From assembly GCA_009773205.1 (NCBI GenBank), contig WPAE01000002.1, positions 3,241 through 67,240 of the forward strand: a stretch of DNA of 64,000 bases. Direction: 5' to 3'. Of this stretch, positions 28,706 through 64,000 are shown piece by piece. The translations under genes were made by a program, and so were the position numbers. The DNA is from Ignavibacteria bacterium (lineage in GTDB: Bacteria; Bacteroidota; Ignavibacteria; Ignavibacteriales; Melioribacteraceae). Below the pieces are notes generated by a model, which saw only the letters and a list, made by a program, of their open reading frames with translations, had not been told where the DNA came from and did no database searches. How positions within the stretch are numbered: position 1 is the stretch's first letter; each line of letters opens with the position of its first letter.

Positions 28706-29602
28706 ATGAAGCAGCTTGACCTAAAAATTGTTGCTGCTCAAATGCTTACTGAGCTTTCGGGTGTAAACCGTGCATCTGAAAACACAGTCTTTGCTTACAC
28801 GCGCGATATTAACGAGTTTATCAAGTTTTGCCAAGAATTTGACCTTAATGAAATAGATAAAATTTCTGAAAGAACAATTCGGCTTTATGTAATGAATTTA
28901 AGTTCTTGGGAAATTGAAAAATCAACTATATCAAGAAAACTTTCTTCAATTCGCAAATTGTTTGAATATGCTGTAAAAAATGAAATAATTGAAACCAACC
29001 CTATCAATAAGATTCCAAATCCAAAATCAAAAAGAAAATTACCGGAAACAATTAGTCTTGATTCTTTTCTGGAAATTTATAAATTGATTAGTGAAGAAAA
29101 TGATGATATTGCTGCAAAGAGAATTAAAGCTATTTTTGAATTACTGTACGGTTGCGCTTTACGAGTTTCGGAGTTGTGTTCATTAAATATTGGAGACATT
29201 GACTTTAGTAATGCTAGCATTAGAGTATTAGGCAAAGGCTCAAAAACTAGGATTGTTCCATTAGGTGCAAAATCATCAGGAATAATTATGGATTATTTAA
29301 GCGATTCAGAAAGCAAAAATCTAAACTATCCGCTCTTAGTCTCAGAAAGTGGAGCTAGAATAAATAGATTTGAAGTTTATAATTTAGTTAAAAAATACAT
29401 CGGAAAAATTTTAGACATTCACAAAAAAAGTCCTCATACACTTAGGCATAGTGCGGCAACACATATGTTGGATAATGAAGCTGACATAATGGCTGTAAAA
29501 GAAATACTTGGTCACGAAAATTTATCAACAACTCAAATTTATACGCACGTGAGCATCGAACGGCTAAAAAAAACGTACAAAAAAGCCCATCCAAAATCCT
29601 AA
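28706..29602 (+). CDS. xerC: Tyrosine recombinase XerC
   Basis: LYGCALRVSEL, VLGKGSKTR, SPHTLRHSAATHML, LGHENLSTTQIYTHV; topA-xerC-hpf context. Confidence 0.88.
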   Translation: MKQLDLKIVAAQMLTELSGVNRASENTVFAYTRDINEFIKFCQEFDLNEIDKISERTIRLYVMNLSSWEIEKSTISRKLSSIRKLFEYAVKNEIIETNPINKIPNPKSKRKLPETISLDSFLEIYKLISEENDDIAAKRIKAIFELLYGCALRVSELCSLNIGDIDFSNASIRVLGKGSKTRIVPLGAKSSGIIMDYLSDSESKNLNYPLLVSESGARINRFEVYNLVKKYIGKILDIHKKSPHTLRHSAATHMLDNEADIMAVKEILGHENLSTTQIYTHVSIERLKKTYKKAHPKS

Positions 29603-54270: not shown

Positions 54271-55093
54271 AGCACACGCTAAGATCAATATTGGTTTAGA
54301 TGTCTTGTCTAAACGCGAAGACGGCTTTCATAACCTAAATACATTGTTTTACCCGATCCTCGATCTATTCGATACACTTTATTTTGAGCGTTCAGATAAA
54401 TTCGAGTTCAAATGTGATTCTAAATCTATCCCAACTGATAGCTCTAATCTTGTTGTAAAAGCTGTTAAGTTGTTAGAAGATATTAGTGGAAAAAAACTTA
54501 CTGCAAAGGTAGAATTGCACAAAAAAATACCTTCACAAGCTGGTTTAGGCGGCGGTAGTTCTGATGCAGCTGCTACTTTAATTTCATTGAATGAAATGTT
54601 TCAACTTGAAATTAAGTACGAACAAATGTTAGAACTTGCTCTCGAACTTGGCTCCGATGTTCCTTTTTTCATAAAAGCAAAACCAGCTATAGGAAAGTTA
54701 CGTGGTGAAATTCTTGAGTACGTAGAACTTTTCATTGAAGAGCCGATTCTAATTGTGAATCCGTGTATTAATGTTTCCACTAAAGAGGCATTTTCATACA
54801 TTCAGCCAAAGGATACTGCAACAGAATTTAAAAATCTAATAGTAAATGAAAAATTAGACTACTCTAAATGTAGATCTGTAGTCAAAAATGATTTCGAGAC
54901 ACCGGTTTTTAATTTGCATCCACAATTACAACAAATCAAAAAGGAATTTTACAATCAAGGAGCTTTATTTGCTTTGATGTCCGGAACCGGCTCTACTATG
55001 TATGGAATTTTCCCGGATTTGAGTTCTGCCGAATCTGCAAGATCGAGAATGGATTCATCTTATTTCTGTTTTATGAGTACTCCTCACTTGTAA
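54251..55093 (+). CDS. ispE: 4-diphosphocytidyl-2-C-methyl-D-erythritol kinase
   Basis: AHAKINIGL, KKIPSQAGLGGGSSDAA, LGSDVPFF, MSGTGS. Confidence 0.96.
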   Translation: MKFIEIKAHAKINIGLDVLSKREDGFHNLNTLFYPILDLFDTLYFERSDKFEFKCDSKSIPTDSSNLVVKAVKLLEDISGKKLTAKVELHKKIPSQAGLGGGSSDAAATLISLNEMFQLEIKYEQMLELALELGSDVPFFIKAKPAIGKLRGEILEYVELFIEEPILIVNPCINVSTKEAFSYIQPKDTATEFKNLIVNEKLDYSKCRSVVKNDFETPVFNLHPQLQQIKKEFYNQGALFALMSGTGSTMYGIFPDLSSAESARSRMDSSYFCFMSTPHL

Positions 55094-56492
55094 CTGTATC
55101 TATTTCCAGTCCAGCTTTTTTATAAGGCAGTTTGATAATTACAGTTGTCCCCGGTGAATCGGCATTTCCAATTTTTGAAGGACTTATGATAGAAATTTCT
55201 CCTTGATGTTTGACAATAATTTCGTGAGTAATTGAAAGCCCCATACCACTTCCTTCAATTTCCGATTTCTTAACATTAGTAGCTCTATAGAAATGCAGAA
55301 AAATATCCTTTTGCTCTGGTTCCGGAATCCCAATTCCATTATCGCTTATTTCAATAAATAGCAATTCCTTTTCATCGGTTAAGATGATAAATATTTCTCC
55401 GTTCTGTCTTGAGTATTTTATTGCATTAGATATAAGATTTGATAGAGCTAATTCCAATAGCATTGGGGCGCCATATAAATCACATTTTTCTTTCCTCTTA
55501 TCGCTAAAACTCAGCATTATATTTTTCTCTTCAATATCTTCTAAACGAACATCAAGTATGTTTTTTATTAACTCTTCAATTCTAACTAATTCATTATTCT
55601 TAATATCCAGCAGTTTGATTCTAGAAAATCTGAGAATATCGTTGATAAGAGATATAGCTTCATCGCTTCTCAGCCTTGCGCGCTGAAGTTTATTAGTAAT
55701 CTCTAAATTTACCGGGCCTACATAGTTTCCAAGAAGGAGATCAATAATTGATTTAACAGCAATGACCGGAGATTTAATTTCATGAACTACACCAAGTGTG
55801 TATCTCTGTTTAGTGTTTTCAGCTTCTTTCAGCTTTTCAAGAGAATCTCTTAGCTGCTGCTCTCTCTTAAACAACTGCCTTGAAATCTTGTTGGTTATGT
55901 AAACACTTACAAATAGTGTAAATGAAAATGTAAGAACATATATCAGATCGTATTCTGATGAGAGAAAAGTAGAACTTTGAATAGTGCCAATGATTTTATG
56001 GCTTGGAATAATAAATAAATATTCTAAGTACAGCAGAACAACTAAGCTGATAGAAATAATTGCTGCGGCAGTATAAACTAAAAAGCCGGGCAATATCATA
56101 CTGCCAATTATCATGTGAAAAACAAATAACATAATTAACGGCGAATCAATTGTACCTGTAAAGTAAACAAGTAAAAGCAATTCCATTAAATCTAAAACCA
56201 TCATTATAAGAGAAGTGTGTAAACAGTTGAATTTATTTGGGCTGCAGCCAATACGTAAACGAAAAACATGAATAATTATATTATAAAAAAGAATTGTTAC
56301 TGCTATAATTAGTATGGCAACAAACTGAATTTCACTTAATCTGAAACTAAACAGATAGTTTACTATTAACAGAAATGCTATTAAGATTACTACAGCTAAG
56401 TATCGTAATCTTATAAACCACAAATTTCTGACCCTTATTGCTCTCCAGAACTCACCGTAATGGTGCGCCCAATCCGGTACAAGCGAAAGCAT
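55071..56492 (-). CDS. Integral-membrane sensor histidine kinase
   Basis: About five N-terminal TMs; H-box HEIKSP, N-box NLISNAIKY, DNGIG, GSGMGL. Confidence 0.9.
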   Translation of the reverse strand: MLSLVPDWAHHYGEFWRAIRVRNLWFIRLRYLAVVILIAFLLIVNYLFSFRLSEIQFVAILIIAVTILFYNIIIHVFRLRIGCSPNKFNCLHTSLIMMVLDLMELLLLVYFTGTIDSPLIMLFVFHMIIGSMILPGFLVYTAAAIISISLVVLLYLEYLFIIPSHKIIGTIQSSTFLSSEYDLIYVLTFSFTLFVSVYITNKISRQLFKREQQLRDSLEKLKEAENTKQRYTLGVVHEIKSPVIAVKSIIDLLLGNYVGPVNLEITNKLQRARLRSDEAISLINDILRFSRIKLLDIKNNELVRIEELIKNILDVRLEDIEEKNIMLSFSDKRKEKCDLYGAPMLLELALSNLISNAIKYSRQNGEIFIILTDEKELLFIEISDNGIGIPEPEQKDIFLHFYRATNVKKSEIEGSGMGLSITHEIIVKHQGEISIISPSKIGNADSPGTTVIIKLPYKKAGLEIDTVTSEEYS

Positions 56493-56696: not shown

Positions 56697-58613
56697 TTAG
56701 GCAATATATCTTCCACGTTTTACATAGTGAGTATGCAGTAATTTATGCGACTTATGACCGCAAGGTCCATCGGTAAAAAATTCTTCATACAATTTAACTA
56801 CGTTTGGATTATCGTGAGCTTTGCGTACTTGAAGCGATTCATCTTCCGAATAAATTGCTTGCGCACGTTTCTTACGAATTTCTGGTGTTGTTGGTATTGG
56901 CTGCCCGCCGCCGCCTAAACAGCCGCCTGGACAAGCCATAAATTCTATGAAATGACATTCGGAGAATTTACCGCCTGCTTTAATATCATCCATAATCTTT
57001 TTAGCATTTGCAGTACCGTGTGCCACAGCAACTTTAAGCGTTACACCTTTAAGCCAATCCCAGTTTGGAACTAAGTGTTTAATAACATCGGGAACCGGTC
57101 CAAATTTTTCTCCAAGAGGCAGCTCTACATATTTAATTCCTTCGAAACCTCTAACAGGAGTAACGTTGGCATTTGCAAAAGCATCTTCCGTTTTATTGCC
57201 GGTTATAAATTCATAGATAGAGCGGATTGCAGCTTCCATAACACCGCCTGTAGCACCAAAAATTAATCCGGCGCCAGAAGCTTCGCCAAACGGAGAGTCG
57301 AAATCACTCTTTGGCATTTCCGGTAAATTAATTCCCGCTTCTTTAATCATCCGAGCTAATTCGCGGGTTGTTAAACCATAATCAACATCTTTGTAACCGC
57401 TGTCATTCATTTCGGGTCTGTTGCACTCATATTTTTTTGCAGAACAAGGCATAACAGCTACAGAAACTATGTCTTCTGGTTTTACACCAGCTTTTTCTGC
57501 GTAAAAAGTTTTTATTAATGCGCCAAACATTTGCTGCGGAGATTTTGCAGTTGAAAGATTATCAATTTGTTCTGGATAATAATGCTCTAAGAATTTTACC
57601 CATCCTGGTGAACAAGAAGTGAATTGTGGAAGTGCAACGGGTTCTTTTTGAACTATTGCTTTGTAAAGACGGAGAACTAATTCCGTTCCCTCTTCAAAGA
57701 TTGTTAAATCAGCTGTAGTATTTGTATCGAATACTTTATCGAAACCAATTCTACGCAAAGCTGTGTTTAATTCTTTTGTTAGAGAATGCCCTGCTTCCAT
57801 TGCAAATTCTTCGCAGATAGCCGCACGTGGCGATGGTGCTGTTTGAATTACAACATGCTTAGCCGGGTCATCAATAGCAGCCCAAATTTCATCTGATGGA
57901 TCGTTTGCGCGGAGTGCAGCCGTTGGACAGCGGTTAATGCATTGCCCGCAGTTTATACAAATTACATCAAGCAGAGGCTTATCTAAAAAAGTGCTTATGC
58001 GTGTATTATGTCCACGCTCTACAGATTCTAGAACACCAACTTCTTGTAAATCAATACATGTTCTAACGCATCTCTTGCAAAGAACGCATTTACTCATATC
58101 TCTTATAACAGAATAAGAAGATTCATCAAGTTCGTATCGCGGCGCTTCTACATGTCCAAAAGTAAAATTATCAACTCCATACTCTTTAGCTAAATACTGA
58201 AGTTCGCATTTGCCGTTTCTTAAACATGAATAGCATTCGCCGTAATGCTCACTTAACATCAAATCAATTATATGGCGGCGTGCTTTGCGTACAGAAGGCG
58301 TGGATGTTTTAATTTTAATAGGCGAAGTAATTGGATAAGCACAAGAAGCCTGAAGCGTTCTCATTCCTTCTACTTCTACAACGCAAACGCGGCATACACC
58401 GGCAACGCACAAATCTTCATGATGACAAAGTGTTGGAACTGTAATTCCATTCATTTTGCATGCATCAAGAATTGTTGTGCCAAGTGGAACAGTAACTTTC
58501 TTTTCATTTATCTCTATTGAAATTGTTCCGCCTATGTAAGAAGGATCAACCGGTTTCTCAATAACGAGGGGCTTCTGGCTAACCGGAGCTCTAAGTTTAC
58601 CTTTATTTTCCAT
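56697..58613 (-). CDS. hydA: [FeFe]-hydrogenase catalytic subunit (group A, multimeric)
   Basis: [2Fe-2S] TLC..CRVC, His-ligated H..EC..C..C, 2x[4Fe-4S] CVLCKRC / CINCGQC; H-cluster motifs FTSCSPGW, MPCSAKK, EFMACPGGCLGGGG. Confidence 0.95.
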   Translation of the reverse strand: MENKGKLRAPVSQKPLVIEKPVDPSYIGGTISIEINEKKVTVPLGTTILDACKMNGITVPTLCHHEDLCVAGVCRVCVVEVEGMRTLQASCAYPITSPIKIKTSTPSVRKARRHIIDLMLSEHYGECYSCLRNGKCELQYLAKEYGVDNFTFGHVEAPRYELDESSYSVIRDMSKCVLCKRCVRTCIDLQEVGVLESVERGHNTRISTFLDKPLLDVICINCGQCINRCPTAALRANDPSDEIWAAIDDPAKHVVIQTAPSPRAAICEEFAMEAGHSLTKELNTALRRIGFDKVFDTNTTADLTIFEEGTELVLRLYKAIVQKEPVALPQFTSCSPGWVKFLEHYYPEQIDNLSTAKSPQQMFGALIKTFYAEKAGVKPEDIVSVAVMPCSAKKYECNRPEMNDSGYKDVDYGLTTRELARMIKEAGINLPEMPKSDFDSPFGEASGAGLIFGATGGVMEAAIRSIYEFITGNKTEDAFANANVTPVRGFEGIKYVELPLGEKFGPVPDVIKHLVPNWDWLKGVTLKVAVAHGTANAKKIMDDIKAGGKFSECHFIEFMACPGGCLGGGGQPIPTTPEIRKKRAQAIYSEDESLQVRKAHDNPNVVKLYEEFFTDGPCGHKSHKLLHTHYVKRGRYIA

Positions 58614-59799
58614 TGTTACCTCCGTTATTGAAAATTTCTTCTTTGAAGTTTTCTAAGATTGATAAAAATGCGTTTGGGCTTGATTGACCTAAGCCGCACT
58701 TGGATGAAAGCTGCATTGTTTTGCCAAGTTCTTTTAGTTTGTTGATGTAGCCGAAAGTGTATTCATGCCTCTCAAGCATTTCAACTCCTTCTAAAAGTTT
58801 TACATTTCCTATTCGGCAAGGTGTACATTGCCCGCAAGATTCTTCAACAAAAAATTCCATAAAGTTTTTTAACACATGAAGCATATTTCTACTTTCATTA
58901 AATATCATAATAGAACCGCCGGTTGCAGCATCTTCGTAGCCAAATATTCTTTCGAATTGAGATTTTGGAATGCAAATACCAGAGGCACCTCCAACTTGTA
59001 CGGCTTTTGTGTCTTTAGCTTCAACAAGTTTTAGCAGCTCAGATATTTTTGTTCCCCAAGGCAATTCGTAAACTCCAGGCTTATCGCAATCGCCGCTAAC
59101 AGAAAATAATTTTGAACCGGTTGATTTATCTGTACCATGTTTGCAGTACCAAGAACCGCCTTTAATAACAATATGAGCAACTGAGGCAAAAGTTTCTACA
59201 TTATTAACGGTTGTTGGCTTTCCCATAAAACCAGTGTTTACTGGATAAGGCGGGCGGTTGCGTGCTTCGCCGCGGTTCCCTTCAAGAGACTCAATCAATG
59301 CAGTTTCTTCGCCGCAAACATAAGCGCCGCTGCCAAGACGAATTTTAATGTCAAAATTAAAATCTACTTTGCCGCAAATATTTTTGCCGAGCAAGTTTTC
59401 TTTACGCATCGTCTCTAAATAATCTTCTAAAGATTTTAACATGTACTCGTATTCGCCGCGTAAATAAACTATGCCAAGCTTAGCGCCAATTACATAACCG
59501 GCTATTACCATTCCGTCAAAAACCAATTCGGGATATTCGAGCAGCAGAACTCTATCCTTAAATGTTCCCGGTTCACCTTCATCTGCATTACATACTACAT
59601 ATTTTTCTTCAGCAGAAGCTGCAGCTACTAAAGTCCATTTTGTTGCTGTTGGAAATCCTGCACCGCCTCTTCCCTTTAGTTTTGATTCGCGAAGTTCAAA
59701 TAAAATATCTTCACGTTTTAAAGAGACTGCTTTAATTATTGATTCACCTTTAATGTAAGGCGAGAATATTACAGATCCTTCTCTATTTTTCTTTTCCAT
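58603..59799 (-). CDS. hydB: NuoF-like diaphorase subunit, short form
   Basis: GRGGAGFP, NADEGEPGTFKDR, YVCGEETAL, ESCGQCTPCRIG..CGLG; ends right after the single [4Fe-4S] domain. Confidence 0.92.
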   Translation of the reverse strand: MEKKNREGSVIFSPYIKGESIIKAVSLKREDILFELRESKLKGRGGAGFPTATKWTLVAAASAEEKYVVCNADEGEPGTFKDRVLLLEYPELVFDGMVIAGYVIGAKLGIVYLRGEYEYMLKSLEDYLETMRKENLLGKNICGKVDFNFDIKIRLGSGAYVCGEETALIESLEGNRGEARNRPPYPVNTGFMGKPTTVNNVETFASVAHIVIKGGSWYCKHGTDKSTGSKLFSVSGDCDKPGVYELPWGTKISELLKLVEAKDTKAVQVGGASGICIPKSQFERIFGYEDAATGGSIMIFNESRNMLHVLKNFMEFFVEESCGQCTPCRIGNVKLLEGVEMLERHEYTFGYINKLKELGKTMQLSSKCGLGQSSPNAFLSILENFKEEIFNNGGNNGK

Positions 59800-59807
59800 T
59801 CTTCACC

Positions 59808-60281
59808 TCACTTAATCGCGTTTAATATTTGTACAGCTTTTTCGGTAGATACTTTTGGGAATACTCTTTCATTAACAAGTAATGCAGGACCTTGATCGCA
59901 CATTCCTAAACAGTTAACATATTCGAGAGTAATTTTGTTATCCTTTGTTGTTTCTCCGAACTTAATTCCGAGTTCTCTTTCGATTGCTTTAGCAACACTT
60001 GCTTTGCCTGCTATATCGCAAGTAATTGTCTGGCAGAGACGAACTATGTTTCTTCCTTTCGGGTTAGTGTTCAAAAAAGCATAGAAAGAAATTACGCTGT
60101 AAACTTCAACCGGATGAATATCTAGCAGGCGTGCAATTTCTTGTTGAGCGAAATCTGGAACGTGTTTATGCTTTCTTTGAATATCCTGAAGAATTGGTAA
60201 AAGTGCCGAACGTGAATTGCCATGTTCCTTAACAAGCAATTCTATCTCTTCAGTCATAGCATTTTTTTCTAGTACAAGCAT
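59808..60281 (-). CDS. hydC: NuoE-like [2Fe-2S] subunit
   Basis: VYSVISFY, CQTITC, NCLGMCDQGP. Confidence 0.92.
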   Translation of the reverse strand: MLVLEKNAMTEEIELLVKEHGNSRSALLPILQDIQRKHKHVPDFAQQEIARLLDIHPVEVYSVISFYAFLNTNPKGRNIVRLCQTITCDIAGKASVAKAIERELGIKFGETTKDNKITLEYVNCLGMCDQGPALLVNERVFPKVSTEKAVQILNAIK

Positions 60282-60664
60282 TATATTTTCTCCCCAACTT
60301 TGTTAAGTAATGTTTCTACTTTAGCAACCAATTGCTCTGGAGAAATTGGCTTTTCAACAAAGTCATCCACAGGCACCATTTCGCTCTTGTTAAAATCCAT
60401 TCCTATTGCTTTAGATACAGAAGTGTACATGAGAATTGGTGTGTGAATATTTTCTCTTCTTAACTTTTGAGCAAGAAAGAACCCATCATCAGGCTCATCC
60501 ATCATAACATCAAGAATAATTAAGTTTGGTTTTCTTTCCTCAATAATTTTGAAGCCATCCGTTGGGTTAGATGCTGTAACAACATCGTAGCCTTTCGATT
60601 TTAACACTAGCGAGCTGGCGTCCAGAATATCTGGATCGTCGTCGATAATAGCTATTAGCGCCAT
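60281..60664 (-). CDS. Single-domain response regulator
   Basis: IDDD, LDVMM phospho-Asp, TS, EKP; no output domain. Confidence 0.92.
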   Translation of the reverse strand: MALIAIIDDDPDILDASSLVLKSKGYDVVTASNPTDGFKIIEERKPNLIILDVMMDEPDDGFFLAQKLRRENIHTPILMYTSVSKAIGMDFNKSEMVPVDDFVEKPISPEQLVAKVETLLNKVGEKI

Positions 60665-60678
60665 AGCTTTCTCCTTTT

Positions 60679-62166
60679 TTAGTTCTGATTTATTGGTAAG
60701 TGAATTGTGAACGTAGTTCCGTAACCGAAAACAGATTCTACTTCGATTTTTCCGTAATACGACTCGACAATTTTTTTAACTATTGATAAACCTAATCCTG
60801 TACCACTAATGCCGCGGGTCTTTTCATTTTTTGCGCGATAAAACTCGTTGAACAATCTGTCTTTTTCTTCCGGCTTCATACCAATTCCGGTATCGCGAAT
60901 TTTTATAGAGACATAACTGTTTTCTTGATGCGCAATAATGTAAATAGAGCCGCTTTCTTTATTGTATTTTATAGCATTGCTAATCAGATTTGTGAACAGA
61001 CGGGTAATTTCACTTACATCAGCTTTAATAATCGGAAGGTTTTCTTGAATATTAGTATCAACAACAATTTCTTTTTTCTTCAGTTCAAATTCTAAGAATT
61101 GTAAAGTACTCTTTATAGTTTCTATAATATTTACATTTTCAATTTCACGATGCTTGGTTTTCAATTCCATTCTAGAAATATCGAGAAGATCATTAACAAG
61201 GTCTGTTAAACTTCTGAGCCGAACCGTAGATCTTGTTAAATATTCTTTCTCTTTTTCCTTATCAACACCAAGAGAATCGTCCAAAATGATATTTATAAAA
61301 CCCTGAACTGCTGCAAGCGGAGTTTTAAGCTCGTGAGCAACCATAGAAACAAATTGAGATTTTATCAGTTCAATCTTTTTGAACTGAGTTACGTTGCTGA
61401 GAATTATTACAACTCCAGCTAAACTACCATCCGGATTTGGAACCGGAGTGCAAGCTGCTTCAATTATTAATTCATTATTAGGAAGAATTTCTATTTGAGT
61501 AGTGTAAGTTTTTAGAAGAATTTTTTCTTTAGAGATTATTTTATCTATTATTTCAGAAATTTCTTTCGGGAGTTTCTCAACAACCTTCTCGCCAATTTTT
61601 ACATCTCTAATATTTAGAAAACGAAGAGCAGCATAATTAAAATAAACAAGCTCTTCGTTTCGGTTTATTACTATAACGCCGTCGCTTATTGCTTTAATTA
61701 TTGTGTTGAGCCGGGATTTTTCTGAAGCAAGTTCAAGCAGTTTTTCTTCACGTTCTTGCTTAAGCCGCAAAGCTTCAAGAATTAGTTGGCGCTGTTTTAG
61801 TCCTTGCTCAATTTGATAAATAAACTCTTCTGGTGTAAACGGTTTTGGAATATAGCTATATGCGCCAAGCCGTGTGGATTGAATGGCAGTATCGTAACTT
61901 GCATAAGCAGTTGCTATAAAGCAGATTGTATTAGGGAATGTTGTTTTAATTTCTTTAAGAACTTCCAGACCGTCAATATCCGGCATCTTTAAATCAATCA
62001 CCGCAACATCAAAATCTTTTGATGTTCCTAAACGAATACCTACTTCGCCGCAATCGGCAGTTTCTACTTCGTATCCTTCGTCCTCAAGTAATCTTTGCGT
62101 TCCAATGCGTAAGCCTTTTTCGTCATCAACAATAAGGATACTAGCTTTTTTAACTTGATCAGACAT
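60679..62166 (-). CDS. Hybrid REC-PAS-histidine kinase
   Basis: REC (VDDE, IDLKMPDIDG, PKPF), PAS-like ISDGVIVIN, H-box AHELKTP, NLISNAIKY, DTGIG, GTGLGL. Confidence 0.92.
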   Translation of the reverse strand: MSDQVKKASILIVDDEKGLRIGTQRLLEDEGYEVETADCGEVGIRLGTSKDFDVAVIDLKMPDIDGLEVLKEIKTTFPNTICFIATAYASYDTAIQSTRLGAYSYIPKPFTPEEFIYQIEQGLKQRQLILEALRLKQEREEKLLELASEKSRLNTIIKAISDGVIVINRNEELVYFNYAALRFLNIRDVKIGEKVVEKLPKEISEIIDKIISKEKILLKTYTTQIEILPNNELIIEAACTPVPNPDGSLAGVVIILSNVTQFKKIELIKSQFVSMVAHELKTPLAAVQGFINIILDDSLGVDKEKEKEYLTRSTVRLRSLTDLVNDLLDISRMELKTKHREIENVNIIETIKSTLQFLEFELKKKEIVVDTNIQENLPIIKADVSEITRLFTNLISNAIKYNKESGSIYIIAHQENSYVSIKIRDTGIGMKPEEKDRLFNEFYRAKNEKTRGISGTGLGLSIVKKIVESYYGKIEVESVFGYGTTFTIHLPINQN

Positions 62167-62179
62167 TTATCACATTTTG

Positions 62180-62596
62180 TTAATTGCTTTTTGGTACAAC
62201 CTCGTAAGATTCTAACTTCGATAGCAATTCTTCTACTACAACAGGCTTGTTCAAAATACCGTCACACTTAATCCATTCCCTTTCTTCACTTGTAGATACA
62301 CTAAATTTGTAACCGGTTTCGTAAGTAGCAGAAGTAAGAATAAACACCGGCATTTGCTTTCCGTGTGCAGTTTTTTTGATTTTATAAGCTAGAATAAAAC
62401 CGGAATCCATTTGTTCCATAATTAAATCTATAATAGCCGCATCTGGTTTCTCTTTCTGGAAAACGTTAAATCCTTCTTCTGCACTTTCTGCACTAACAAC
62501 TAGAAAACCTTTTGCTTCAAGCAGCATTTTATTTTGTTCTAATAAATCAATATCATCATCAACAAGCAAGATTTTTTTTACATCAGCTAAGTTCAT
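62180..62596 (-). CDS. Single-domain response regulator
   Basis: VDDD, IDLIM phospho-Asp, TS, NKP; no output domain. Confidence 0.92.
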   Translation of the reverse strand: MNLADVKKILLVDDDIDLLEQNKMLLEAKGFLVVSAESAEEGFNVFQKEKPDAAIIDLIMEQMDSGFILAYKIKKTAHGKQMPVFILTSATYETGYKFSVSTSEEREWIKCDGILNKPVVVEELLSKLESYEVVPKSN

Positions 62597-62609: not shown

Positions 62610-64000
62610 TTAATTCAATAAAACGTTTGTATTTAATTTTACCGGAAATTTAATTGTAAATGTAGTTCCTTTTCCTTCAAGACTTTTAACTCTAATATCA
62701 CCTTTGTGCATTTTTACTATTCCGTAAGTAATAGCTAAACCAAGTCCTGTTCCTTTGCCCATTTTCTTTGTTGTAAAAAAAGGAGTAAATATTTTTGCAA
62801 CATTTTCAGCAGGTATTCCGCACCCGGAATCAGAAATTTCTGCAGTTAGAAATTCTTCGGTGCGCTTAATGTTAACAGATATTTCTTTCTGTTCGCATGA
62901 TTCAACTGCTTCTACAGCATTAACAAGTAAATTGATAAAAACTTGTTTTATCTGATCTCCATCGCCGCCTATAATTGCATCTTCGGTAAGTTCATTTATA
63001 TTAAAAGTTACTCCACTGTATTCTGGATTCAATCTCAAAGTTGATACAATTCCTTTAACTATATCTGCTGCATTAATTGTAGAAATACGGAGTTTACCTT
63101 GTCTTGCAAAATTTAGAAGATTAGAGACAATATTTCTGCATCTGTTAGCTTCTTCCATAATTAATGCTAAGTCTTCGCTATTCTGATTCTCGCCGCCCGA
63201 TTTTTCTAACTTGCGTTTCAGCATTGAAGCATAAAGCATAATTGAACCAAGTGGATTATTAATTTCGTGTGCCACTCCGGCAGCAAGCTGACCAATTGAA
63301 GCAAGTTTTTCAGCGCTGTTAAGCTGCTCATGCGTTTCTTTAATCTCTATGTTAGCGGCTTCAAGTTTATCAATCAAATACGGAAGGCACATATCATCTT
63401 CTGCTAAGCATTTTGCAATGGCTACTGCATAGTTTCTGCAGGTAGAGTATCCGCAAGAGCCGCAATTTAATTCATCGCTCTTGGTTAATTTGTTAGTACG
63501 TAAAAGAATTTCTTTAATCTCTTCTTCACTTGGCATTGGTCTTCTTTGAGGTTTTGATGTAAACTTCCTCTTAAGGTTAACATCTCTTGAGTTAAAGATG
63601 TTACTTTGCCACTCTCGCTTATCCAATGAGTTCAAGTTTTCATTTATGTAACAAACTACTTTTTCTCTTCTCGAATAATAGTTCAAATCGGAGTCTATTG
63701 CCGGTCCATTTATACAGCCTTCGCAGAAAAGTATATCAACAAATTTCGATTTAAGATTACCATTTGCAATTTCTTCTATAATCTCCGTTACTTTAGTTCT
63801 TCCTTCTACAACAATAATATCCTTATGAAGAATATCTTCATTAATATTTGCTGTTTTAAGCAAGCCGCCTACAAGCGGATACGATTTTCCTAAATATGCG
63901 TGTGGTTTGTCAAAATCGGTTTCTTCTAGTTCATCGAAATTTATGTTCTGTTCTCGAAAAATTTTTTTCAGCTCTTTAAATGTTAAAACTGCATCAACAG
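62610..64000 (-). CDS. [FeFe]-hydrogenase-like / Fe-S / histidine kinase fusion (group C1-type putative H2 sensor), 5'-truncated
   Basis: Frame stays open to the window edge (VDAVLTFKEL..); ILFCEGCINGP; CGSCGYSTC..C Fe-S domain; H-box AHEINNP, N-box, G1, F and G2 boxes. Confidence 0.85.
   Translation of the reverse strand, partial: VDAVLTFKELKKIFREQNINFDELEETDFDKPHAYLGKSYPLVGGLLKTANINEDILHKDIIVVEGRTKVTEIIEEIANGNLKSKFVDILFCEGCINGPAIDSDLNYYSRREKVVCYINENLNSLDKREWQSNIFNSRDVNLKRKFTSKPQRRPMPSEEEIKEILLRTNKLTKSDELNCGSCGYSTCRNYAVAIAKCLAEDDMCLPYLIDKLEAANIEIKETHEQLNSAEKLASIGQLAAGVAHEINNPLGSIMLYASMLKRKLEKSGGENQNSEDLALIMEEANRCRNIVSNLLNFARQGKLRISTINAADIVKGIVSTLRLNPEYSGVTFNINELTEDAIIGGDGDQIKQVFINLLVNAVEAVESCEQKEISVNIKRTEEFLTAEISDSGCGIPAENVAKIFTPFFTTKKMGKGTGLGLAITYGIVKMHKGDIRVKSLEGKGTTFTIKFPVKLNTNVLLN

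Follow-up and report, generated by a model that had tools for sequence, protein, structure and literature searches.

The window considered here is a 64,000-nucleotide stretch of DNA from an Ignavibacteria bacterium (GenBank assembly GCA_009773205.1, contig WPAE01000002.1, positions 3,241 to 67,240 of the forward strand; positions below are counted from its first letter), and near its end it carries, on the reverse strand, an operon hydC-hydB-hydA for an [FeFe]-hydrogenase. The product of hydB is probably the NADH-binding flavoprotein of a cytoplasmic heterotrimeric HydC-HydB-HydA [FeFe]-hydrogenase of the non-bifurcating, ferredoxin-independent type. This assignment rests on the domains that HydB lacks and on the residues at its flavin site, and not on close homology to an assayed enzyme. 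The distinction between bifurcating and non-bifurcating HydABC enzymes changes how the hydrogen and redox metabolism of a genome is read, as a non-bifurcating enzyme would allow NADH to be disposed of as H2 only if partner organisms hold H2 very low, or would allow H2 to be harvested as NADH. The genes and sites on which the assignment depends are the following:

59808..60281, reverse strand: hydC, a 157-amino-acid (aa) NuoE-like thioredoxin-like [2Fe-2S] subunit (Pfam 2Fe-2S_thioredx, E 6.9e-47)
58603..59799, reverse strand: hydB, a 398-aa NuoF-like flavin mononucleotide (FMN)/NADH subunit with one [4Fe-4S] cluster, predicted to be of the non-bifurcating type (open reading frame, Pfam, signature residues, match to Ignavibacterium album)
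59551..59589, reverse strand: NADH-site loop NADEGEPGTFKDR, HydB residues 71-83 (alignments to 7p5h_B, 7q4v_B, 5xf9_A, 2fug_1 and 6q9c_B)
59320..59322, reverse strand: Y160 in GSGAYVCGEE, the FMN-site Tyr, at the position of F312 in Thermotoga maritima HydB (TmHydB) (alignment; criterion from Table S1 of Losey et al. 2020)
58978..58992, reverse strand: GGASG, HydB residues 270-274 in the SLBB region, replacing the bifurcating-type GGPSG (alignment)
58696..58836, reverse strand: single [4Fe-4S] site, Cys322/325/328 and Cys368, equivalent to N3/B1 (Pfam NADH_4Fe-4S; ESCGQCTPCR and KCGLG conserved)
56697..58613, reverse strand: hydA, the 638-aa [FeFe]-hydrogenase catalytic subunit (Pfam; NCBIfam NF040763, 796 bits against a cutoff of 765)

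What can be observed directly is the domain content of the proteins, their cluster count, the diagnostic residues, the operon partners and their conservation. The hydB gene begins with an ATG codon 9 nucleotides (nt) past the hydC stop, and its last 11 nt are shared with hydA. Pfam recognizes Complex1_51K at residues 37-208 of HydB (E 2.3e-42) and NADH_4Fe-4S at residues 309-389 (E 4.3e-25), together with a weak, sub-threshold match to SLBB, and it finds in this protein neither a thioredoxin-like [2Fe-2S] domain nor a Fer4 domain. When HydB is aligned to TmHydB, the part left over is 18 aa at the N-terminus and 9 aa at the C-terminus, both free of Cys, so that the N-terminal [2Fe-2S] domain (cluster B2) and the C-terminal 2x[4Fe-4S] domain (clusters B3/B4, the ferredoxin branch) are both absent, as an earlier note made from the sequence alone had stated. 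The sole cluster motif of the protein is C322/C325/C328/C368. The 120 nearest database homologs of HydB all measure 397-406 aa and all carry CNADEGEPGTFKDR and GGASG, with the loop NADEGEPGTFKDR invariant among them; because of this uniform length, the shortness of HydB is a conserved property and not the result of a truncation or a miscalled start. The AlphaFold2 model of HydB is of low confidence (mean predicted local distance difference test score 66.9), and Foldseek, queried with it, returned NuoF and HydB chains of both types at a template modelling score of about 0.43. At the level of this model, the fold search supports membership in the HydB family but does not separate the bifurcating from the non-bifurcating type.

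The criteria by which both types have been told apart come mainly from Losey et al. 2020 (PMC7311640). There, the beta subunits of bifurcating enzymes are described as carrying additional Fe-S domains that the non-bifurcating ones do not have, and four sequence traits are given: A or E at TmHydB position 232 in bifurcating enzymes versus T or S in non-bifurcating ones, M versus K, S or A at position 234, F versus Y at the FMN site, and GGPSG at TmHydB 427-431 as a bifurcating trait. HydB was compared with the T. maritima (7p5h_B) and Acetobacterium woodii (7q4v_B) chains by HMMER alignments, and with the reference sequences from the supplement in a MAFFT alignment. In TmHydB numbering it reads E229, T232, K234, Y312 and GGASG, T79 and K81 of its loop being the residues at positions 232 and 234. 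All four traits of the non-bifurcating type are thus found in it (T232, K234, Y312 and no GGPSG). The bifurcating references in the alignment read D, A, M, F and GGPSG, and they bear N-terminal extensions of 140-194 aa with 5-13 Cys and C-terminal extensions of 75 aa with 10 Cys. The domain and Cys inventories of HydB leave room only for FMN and one [4Fe-4S] cluster, and the gene is encoded together with an [FeFe]-hydrogenase HydA and a NuoE-like HydC, the order hydC-hydB-hydA being kept in 77-80 related loci.

The FMN-site residue is numbered TmHydB 367 in the main text of Losey et al. 2020 and about 312 in its Tables S1-S3; our alignment to 7p5h_B places it at F312, in GAGAFVCGEE. A PP(Y/F)P motif was also considered as an FMN-site criterion and rejected, since PPYP also occurs in the bifurcating-type HydB' described below and PPFP in the non-bifurcating-type S. 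lipocalidus. A second published source points the same way as the first. Schut et al. 2022 (PMC9304861) described non-bifurcating homologs, among them Syntrophomonas wolfei Hyd1, as lacking B2-B5 and not interacting with ferredoxin, and they named F182, A202 and M204 of the A. mobile enzyme, around the FMN/NAD site, as specific to bifurcating enzymes; the equivalents in HydB are Y, T and K. It has also been reported that bifurcation activity is no more than low once the HydB C-terminus has been deleted (Katsyv et al. 2023, PMC10021017).

The NADH-site loop was further searched with a query of 45 aa around it. The loop of HydB is identical to that of HoxF (5xf9) from the NAD+-reducing, non-bifurcating [NiFe]-hydrogenase of H. 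thermoluteolus, and its counterparts read ESEPGSFKDR in Nqo1 of T. thermophilus and ESEPGTFKDR in Aquifex NuoF. It had been called complex-I-like in the earlier note, a description that these matches bear out, and the sequences quoted there for comparison were likewise right: A. woodii reads NADEGDPGAFMDR and T. maritima NGDEGDPGAFMNR. HydB is not itself a complex I subunit, in that it scores 380 bits against the NuoF equivalog TIGR01959 (cutoff 558.65) and its neighbours are hydC and hydA, with no nuo operon around it.

The non-bifurcating prediction as such is already published for the ortholog of I. album, YP_005845236, which Table S1 of Losey et al. 2020 lists among the trimeric hydrogenases re-predicted to be non-bifurcating; the window HydB, 78% identical to it over 389 aa, adds a lineage member. 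The closest genomes are uncultured Melioribacter and Melioribacteraceae metagenome-assembled genomes (MAGs), at 96-81% identity, followed by Rosettibacter, Stygiobacter and Ignavibacteriaceae. In a neighbour-joining tree of beta subunits (12 sequences, 380 columns), in which S. lipocalidus stood in for S. wolfei Hyd1B as it did in the identity comparisons, the bifurcating sequences form a clade with 98% bootstrap, the window HydB lies outside it, and HydB and the short HydB of I. album are sister sequences with 100% bootstrap. The public sequencing runs that contain this DNA are all of metagenomic DNA, from groundwater, aquatic and sediment sources, and a search among public runs for RNA runs holding it found none. 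Two related loci, L043 and L052, present the full Melioribacteraceae-type cluster, with HydB at 80-82% identity, in MAGs labelled Syntrophomonadaceae and Acidobacteriota; these labels are probably binning errors.

The earlier note had proposed that this enzyme links NADH and H2 without ferredoxin, and as a prediction the proposal holds up well: the signature residues are of the non-bifurcating kind, B2-B5 are missing and HydB falls outside the bifurcating clade. For the electron path, the cofactor specificity, the lack of ferredoxin coupling and the physiological direction of HydCBA we infer the following scheme. Within the NuoF-like Rossmann domain of HydB, where the loop NADEGEPGTFKDR and GSGAYVCGEE lie, FMN would take up a hydride from NADH, and single electrons would leave FMN through the only [4Fe-4S] cluster of HydB, held by C322, C325, C328 and C368. 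From there they would pass to the [2Fe-2S] and the three [4Fe-4S] clusters of HydA and on to the H-cluster, where protons would be reduced. The [2Fe-2S] cluster of HydC would sit beside the flavin, off the path, like N1a of complex I. A route for ferredoxin would be missing, given that HydB does not have the N-terminal [2Fe-2S] and C-terminal 2x[4Fe-4S] domains that provide the low-potential branch and the docking of ferredoxin in bifurcating HydABC. The net reaction would be NADH + H+ <-> NAD+ + H2, with H2 evolved only at roughly 1-40 Pa H2 and the reaction otherwise running toward NAD+ reduction. That H2 would be made only at very low H2 pressure, as the earlier note also held, follows from published values of 2.2-40.2 Pa H2 at NADH/NAD+ ratios of 1-5, H2 evolution being feasible below about 10 Pa.

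The catalytic partner HydA comprises a [2Fe-2S] domain, a NuoG-type His-ligated [4Fe-4S] domain, a 2x[4Fe-4S] dicluster, the H-domain and a small-subunit (SSU) domain, and its best match in the PDB is A. woodii HydA1 (9.5e-175). One of its H-cluster motifs departs from the usual form:

57600..57620, reverse strand: H-cluster L1 motif TSCSPGW, HydA residues 332-338, with Ser at the position of CpI C300 (alignment to CpI)

In CpI, C300 is a ligand of the [4Fe-4S] subcluster and C299 belongs to the proton relay. HydA thus reads TSCSPGW where TSCCPxW is usual, its L2 and L3 motifs are canonical, and the Cys predicted to be equivalent to the proton-relay C299 is kept. All 77 HydAs downstream of a short HydB carry TSCSPGW, while all 36 of the upstream HydA' copies introduced below carry TSCCP[GS]W. 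Beyond these, among the 150 cluster representatives (50% identity) nearest to HydA, 23 have (T/S)SCSP(G/A)W. TSCSPGW was tried as a marker of non-bifurcation and discarded, since five TSCSP HydAs from other lineages proved to have partner HydBs of both types: two short HydBs, one 1043-aa HydB fused to a GltD-like region, and two HydB fragments ending in 2x[4Fe-4S]. The 1043-aa protein (locus L083, 1831-4962), with its GltD-like Fer4_20/Pyr_redox_2 part, reads D/A/M/F/GGPSG and adjoins a TSCSPGW HydA. The motif is a widespread natural variant unrelated to bifurcation, and apparently an unstudied one; the sole mention of a TSCSP-type motif found in the literature is a remark on two Melainabacteria hydrogenases, and the best five PDB matches listed for the L1 stretch of HydA are all TSCCP. 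In comparison with HydA', HydA has a Cys-free N-terminal extension of 29-30 aa (residues 1-30) and a 21-aa insertion in the H-domain at residues ~500-520, the region of GEKFGPVPDVIKHLVPNWDWL.

The operon is embedded in a set of signalling genes on the same strand, the window ending within the sensor gene at 62610, and positions 1-52000 hold housekeeping genes:

55071..56492, reverse strand: membrane histidine kinase of 473 aa, PilS-like with six transmembrane segments, HisKA and HATPase (Pfam)
60281..60664, reverse strand: RR2, a receiver-only response regulator of 127 aa (open reading frame, Pfam)
60679..62166, reverse strand: hybrid REC-PAS-HisKA-HATPase histidine kinase of 495 aa (Pfam)
62180..62596, reverse strand: RR1, a receiver-only response regulator of 138 aa (Pfam)
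62610..64000, reverse strand: HydS-like sensory [FeFe]-hydrogenase/histidine kinase, the C-terminal 463 of 663 codons, running past the window end (locus L081, 4546-6537)
1-52000, remainder of the window, housekeeping: MutS2, biotin carboxylase, FadL-type porin, gamma-glutamyltranspeptidase, MnmA, TrpRS, LysRS
1-52000, remainder of the window, housekeeping (continued): topoisomerase I, XerC/D-type recombinase (28706-29602), HPr kinase, thiolase, PurF, ParB, DHPS

RR2 and hydC share one nucleotide, where the stop of the former meets the start of the latter, and almost every related locus has RR2 ahead of hydC, even where the sensor is missing. The membrane kinase gene lies 205 nt downstream of hydA and is kept there in most related loci. 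The open reading frame listed as 417 aa at 62610-63863 belongs to a longer gene, whose C-terminal part it forms and which stays open to the window end. Its HydS-like product combines 2x[4Fe-4S], an H-domain, a PF04060 Fe-S domain, HisKA and HATPase, and it fits the putative group C1 of HydDB, in which kinase-linked sensory [FeFe]-hydrogenases are placed with an undetermined role. By eye its L1 motif reads SSPCP, so that the proton-relay Cys would be a Pro. The annotation of the rest of the window holds no ferredoxin, pyruvate:ferredoxin oxidoreductase or Rnf genes.

The sequence beyond the window was reached through a look-up of the RR1 protein, which led to the parent contig (ENA ERZ27284381:k139_277263, 72,633 bp). 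The window and locus L081 agree without a single mismatch along 11,821 nt, and window position 64000 corresponds to L081 position 5147. All on one strand, the order is HydC', HydB', HydA', HydS-kinase, RR1, REC-PAS-kinase, RR2, HydC, HydB, HydA and membrane kinase. A second complete hydrogenase set therefore lies past the window end in the same orientation (L081 323-4543), with HydC', HydB' and HydA' of 162, 662 and 576 aa. HydB' has a CCxxC prefix, a Cys-rich N-terminal region, the NuoF core and a C-terminal 2x[4Fe-4S] dicluster domain; its signature is D/A/M/F/GGPSG, with 12 extra Cys at the N-terminus and 10 at the C-terminus, and the L1 motif of HydA' is TSCCPGW. Because this separate and complete HydC'B'A' is encoded five genes upstream, the short HydB is a distinct paralog and not a degraded copy. 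The HydS-kinase gene starts 3 nt after the end of hydA', and both hydrogenase sets and the relay between them are joined with gaps of at most 15 nt. The arrangement was followed in 80 related genome loci, 51 of which include enough upstream sequence for the layout to be counted. The tandem of bifurcating-type set, HydS-kinase relay and short operon is present in 33 of the 51; the other 18, mostly labelled Ignavibacteriaceae, have only RR2-HydC-HydB-HydA-kinase, without an adjacent bifurcating set or sensor. In some loci that lack the tandem (L036 6118-7126, and also L015, L029 and L042), an additional NuoE-like [2Fe-2S] protein of 180 aa and a stand-alone HATPase_c protein of 163 aa precede RR2 in place of the HydS-kinase relay.

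The sensor relay is thus flanked by a bifurcating-type hydrogenase on one side and by a non-bifurcating-type one on the other. The earlier note had seen in it a dedicated H2 sensor for HydCBA, a view that the wider locus does not sustain: as the HydS-kinase adjoins hydA' of the bifurcating type and is missing beside the short operon in the 18 loci just mentioned, the sensor is shared by, or belongs to, the pair of hydrogenases and not HydCBA alone. None of the three receiver-domain proteins (RR1, the REC-PAS-kinase and RR2) has a DNA-binding output domain, which, together with the one-nucleotide overlap of RR2 with hydC, suggests that the output of the relay may act at the protein level and not on transcription. 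In scans of the cluster, promoter-like sites were less frequent than in shuffled sequence, and terminator-like sites were about as frequent as expected by chance. It has been proposed by Losey et al. 2020 that genomes with both types of hydrogenase may use them at different H2 levels; the physical linkage of both types through a sensor relay is an addition of the present analysis. Tentatively, the cluster may switch H2 metabolism between a ferredoxin-coupled and an NADH-only mode according to the H2 pressure, with its output on the enzyme at the protein level, an idea that we hold to be less likely than not.

Several points weigh against the non-bifurcating assignment of HydB. Apart from the I. 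album ortholog, it is only 38-43% identical to every reference (39.7% to S. lipocalidus), its best whole-sequence PDB matches are bifurcating-type B subunits (~1e-98), and the tree did not unite the non-bifurcating sequences in one supported clade. According to a 2026 paper, the experimentally verified non-bifurcating cases are only S. wolfei, Syntrophus aciditrophicus and an anaerobic fungus, so the assayed enzymes all lie outside this Ignavibacteriota lineage. The criteria of Losey et al. 2020 are themselves correlations drawn from 17 characterised sequences. They are not always concordant, as a short 413-aa HydB from another lineage (L087 1904-3145) has the mixed signature E/N/K/Y together with GGPSG. 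Shortness alone proves nothing either, given that some HydBs with the bifurcating signature A/M/F/GGPSG are only 443-486 aa long. As for the partner, one H-cluster ligand position of HydA is occupied by an unusual Ser, and ferredoxin could in principle feed electrons straight to the distal HydA clusters.

A rival view is that the complex is still ferredoxin-coupled, through a borrowed HydB', an unlinked Fe-S partner or ferredoxin docking on HydA, and would then be ferredoxin-dependent or bifurcating. In favour of it, the same strand encodes a full bifurcating-type HydB' some 6.5 kb upstream, the N-terminal clusters of HydA resemble those of CpI, and the similarity of HydB to bifurcating B subunits is slightly above that to NuoF. 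HydB', however, has its own HydC' and HydA', and the short operon stands without a bifurcating set nearby in 18 of the 51 loci. All the bifurcation-linked flavin-site residues are replaced in HydB, and enzymes of the same layout are ferredoxin-independent. The earlier note had reckoned with a separate gene that might supply the missing clusters; the operon contains no extra Fe-S gene, and no ferredoxin-like gene was found in or beside it. Ferredoxin coupling is, in our estimation, unlikely. Somewhat less probable still is that the nucleotide partner is NADPH instead of NADH. Some HydABC enzymes do use NADP(H), and Katsyv et al. 2023 (PMC10021017) write NAD(P)+ for the enzyme of T. kivui. HydB has in its loop the Glu of DEGEPG, as do the NADH-specific complex I subunits and HoxF, and a Glu in a loop of this kind would disfavour the 2'-phosphate. 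Moreover, NADH is the nucleotide of all assayed non-bifurcating enzymes with the T/K/Y residues, and for the fungal one it was shown that NADPH does not serve. Least probable of all, and in our opinion very improbable, is that the Cys-to-Ser exchange at the H-cluster ligand impairs HydA and that the complex is regulatory or of very low turnover rather than part of bulk metabolism. TSCSPGW in place of TSCCPxW, with Ser at CpI C300, and the signalling genes flanking the operon speak for it. An impaired enzyme is hard to square with the strict retention of the motif in the 77 orthologs and its occurrence in 23 of the 150 cluster representatives, including HydAs beside ordinary bifurcating-type HydBs, or with canonical L2 and L3 motifs and a full electron-transfer chain and NADH module.

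A different kind of alternative leaves the proposed mechanism as it is and concerns its direction: HydCBA might work physiologically in H2 uptake, oxidising H2 to make NADH for respiration or biosynthesis, as soluble NAD+-reducing hydrogenases do, instead of getting rid of NADH as H2. This is the most substantial of the competing explanations, though it remains clearly short of being the favoured one. Uptake is favoured by thermodynamics, since H2 reduces NAD+ exergonically, and by the NADH loop, in which HydB and the NAD+-reducing HoxF do not differ. Also in its favour, the relatives are facultative anaerobes with respiratory chains, and the organism is present in metagenomes from groundwater, aquatic sources and sediment. 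Against uptake, it has been shown in Melioribacter roseus that both of its hydrogenase sets are detected as proteins only under fermentation (Gavrilov 2017), so that MROS_2487/2488, matched to the short operon by gene position, appear only in H2-producing conditions and alongside the bifurcating-type set; the two bacterial enzymes of the non-bifurcating kind that have been assayed likewise produce H2 in vivo. The M. roseus proteomics thus favours a fermentative, H2-evolving role in vivo, while H2 uptake stays a live option in view of the exergonic direction and the HoxF-like loop. With HydB as the probable NADH-linked, non-bifurcating subunit, groundwater Melioribacteraceae would carry both types of hydrogenase next to each other, with a putative H2 sensor between them, and their cultured relatives Melioribacter, Rosettibacter and Stygiobacter make the choice between the two modes, and the targets of group C1 sensors, tractable for testing.

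Among known systems, the bifurcating HydABC/Bfu enzymes (T. maritima 7P5H, A. woodii 7Q4V and T. kivui 8A6T) have homologous A, B and C subunits encoded in the same gene order, but the window HydB differs from theirs in having neither the N-terminal [2Fe-2S] nor the C-terminal 2x[4Fe-4S] domain, and in reading E/T/K/Y/GGASG instead of D/A/M/F/GGPSG. With complex I (NuoEF(G)/Nqo1-2-3) and HoxF it shares the NuoF core, a single N3-type cluster and a loop that is near-identical (NuoF/Nqo1) or identical (HoxF); in contrast to both, its gene stands beside that of an [FeFe]-hydrogenase catalytic subunit and is not part of a nuo or hox operon. In M. roseus, two [FeFe]-hydrogenase sets, MROS_2480-2482 and MROS_2487-2488, lie four genes apart (Kadnikov 2013), a spacing that matches the tandem layout, the correspondence being by gene number and related MAG loci. 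Both sets were described in 2013 as bifurcating, unlike our prediction for the window enzyme, and the accessory subunit Mros2487 was described as fused, whereas no HydC-HydB fusion of the kind reported for it occurs in any of the 79 related loci.

The I. album protein YP_005845236 (409 aa) is similar in length and identical at T/K/Y/GGASG, the type being predicted for both proteins; it comes from the Ignavibacteriaceae and not from a Melioribacteraceae-like genome, and Ignavibacteriaceae-type loci lack the adjacent bifurcating set and HydS-kinase. The HydAB enzyme of S. aciditrophicus (Losey et al. 2020) carries out the non-bifurcating NADH:H2 chemistry that is predicted for the window enzyme, and its beta subunit also has non-bifurcating residues and no C-terminal 2x[4Fe-4S] domain. 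In that enzyme, however, HydC is fused to the N-terminus of HydB and the complex is an alpha2beta2 dimer of dimers, whereas hydC and hydB are separate genes in 79 of 79 related loci. The earlier note had counted both this enzyme and S. wolfei Hyd1 as having short beta subunits; this is right for S. wolfei, and wrong for S. aciditrophicus, where HydC and HydB are fused in one 66-kDa protein that has an additional [2Fe-2S] cluster. S. wolfei Hyd1ABC (Losey et al. 2017) differs from the window enzyme in belonging to another phylum (core identity 39.7% to the Syntrophomonadaceae stand-in S. lipocalidus) and in reading GGTSG where the window HydB reads GGASG; the window HydA is set apart by its 638 aa, TSCSPGW and 21-aa insertion, and S. 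wolfei is an obligate syntroph whereas the window host lineage is a facultative fermenter. The likenesses lie in the T/K/Y signature without GGPSG and in the build of the enzyme, which consists in both cases of three separate subunits with the same predicted cofactors: a HydB (43.9 kDa in S. wolfei) with FMN and one [4Fe-4S] cluster, a HydC (17.5 kDa in S. wolfei) with one [2Fe-2S] cluster, and a HydA with three [4Fe-4S] clusters, one [2Fe-2S] cluster and the H-cluster.

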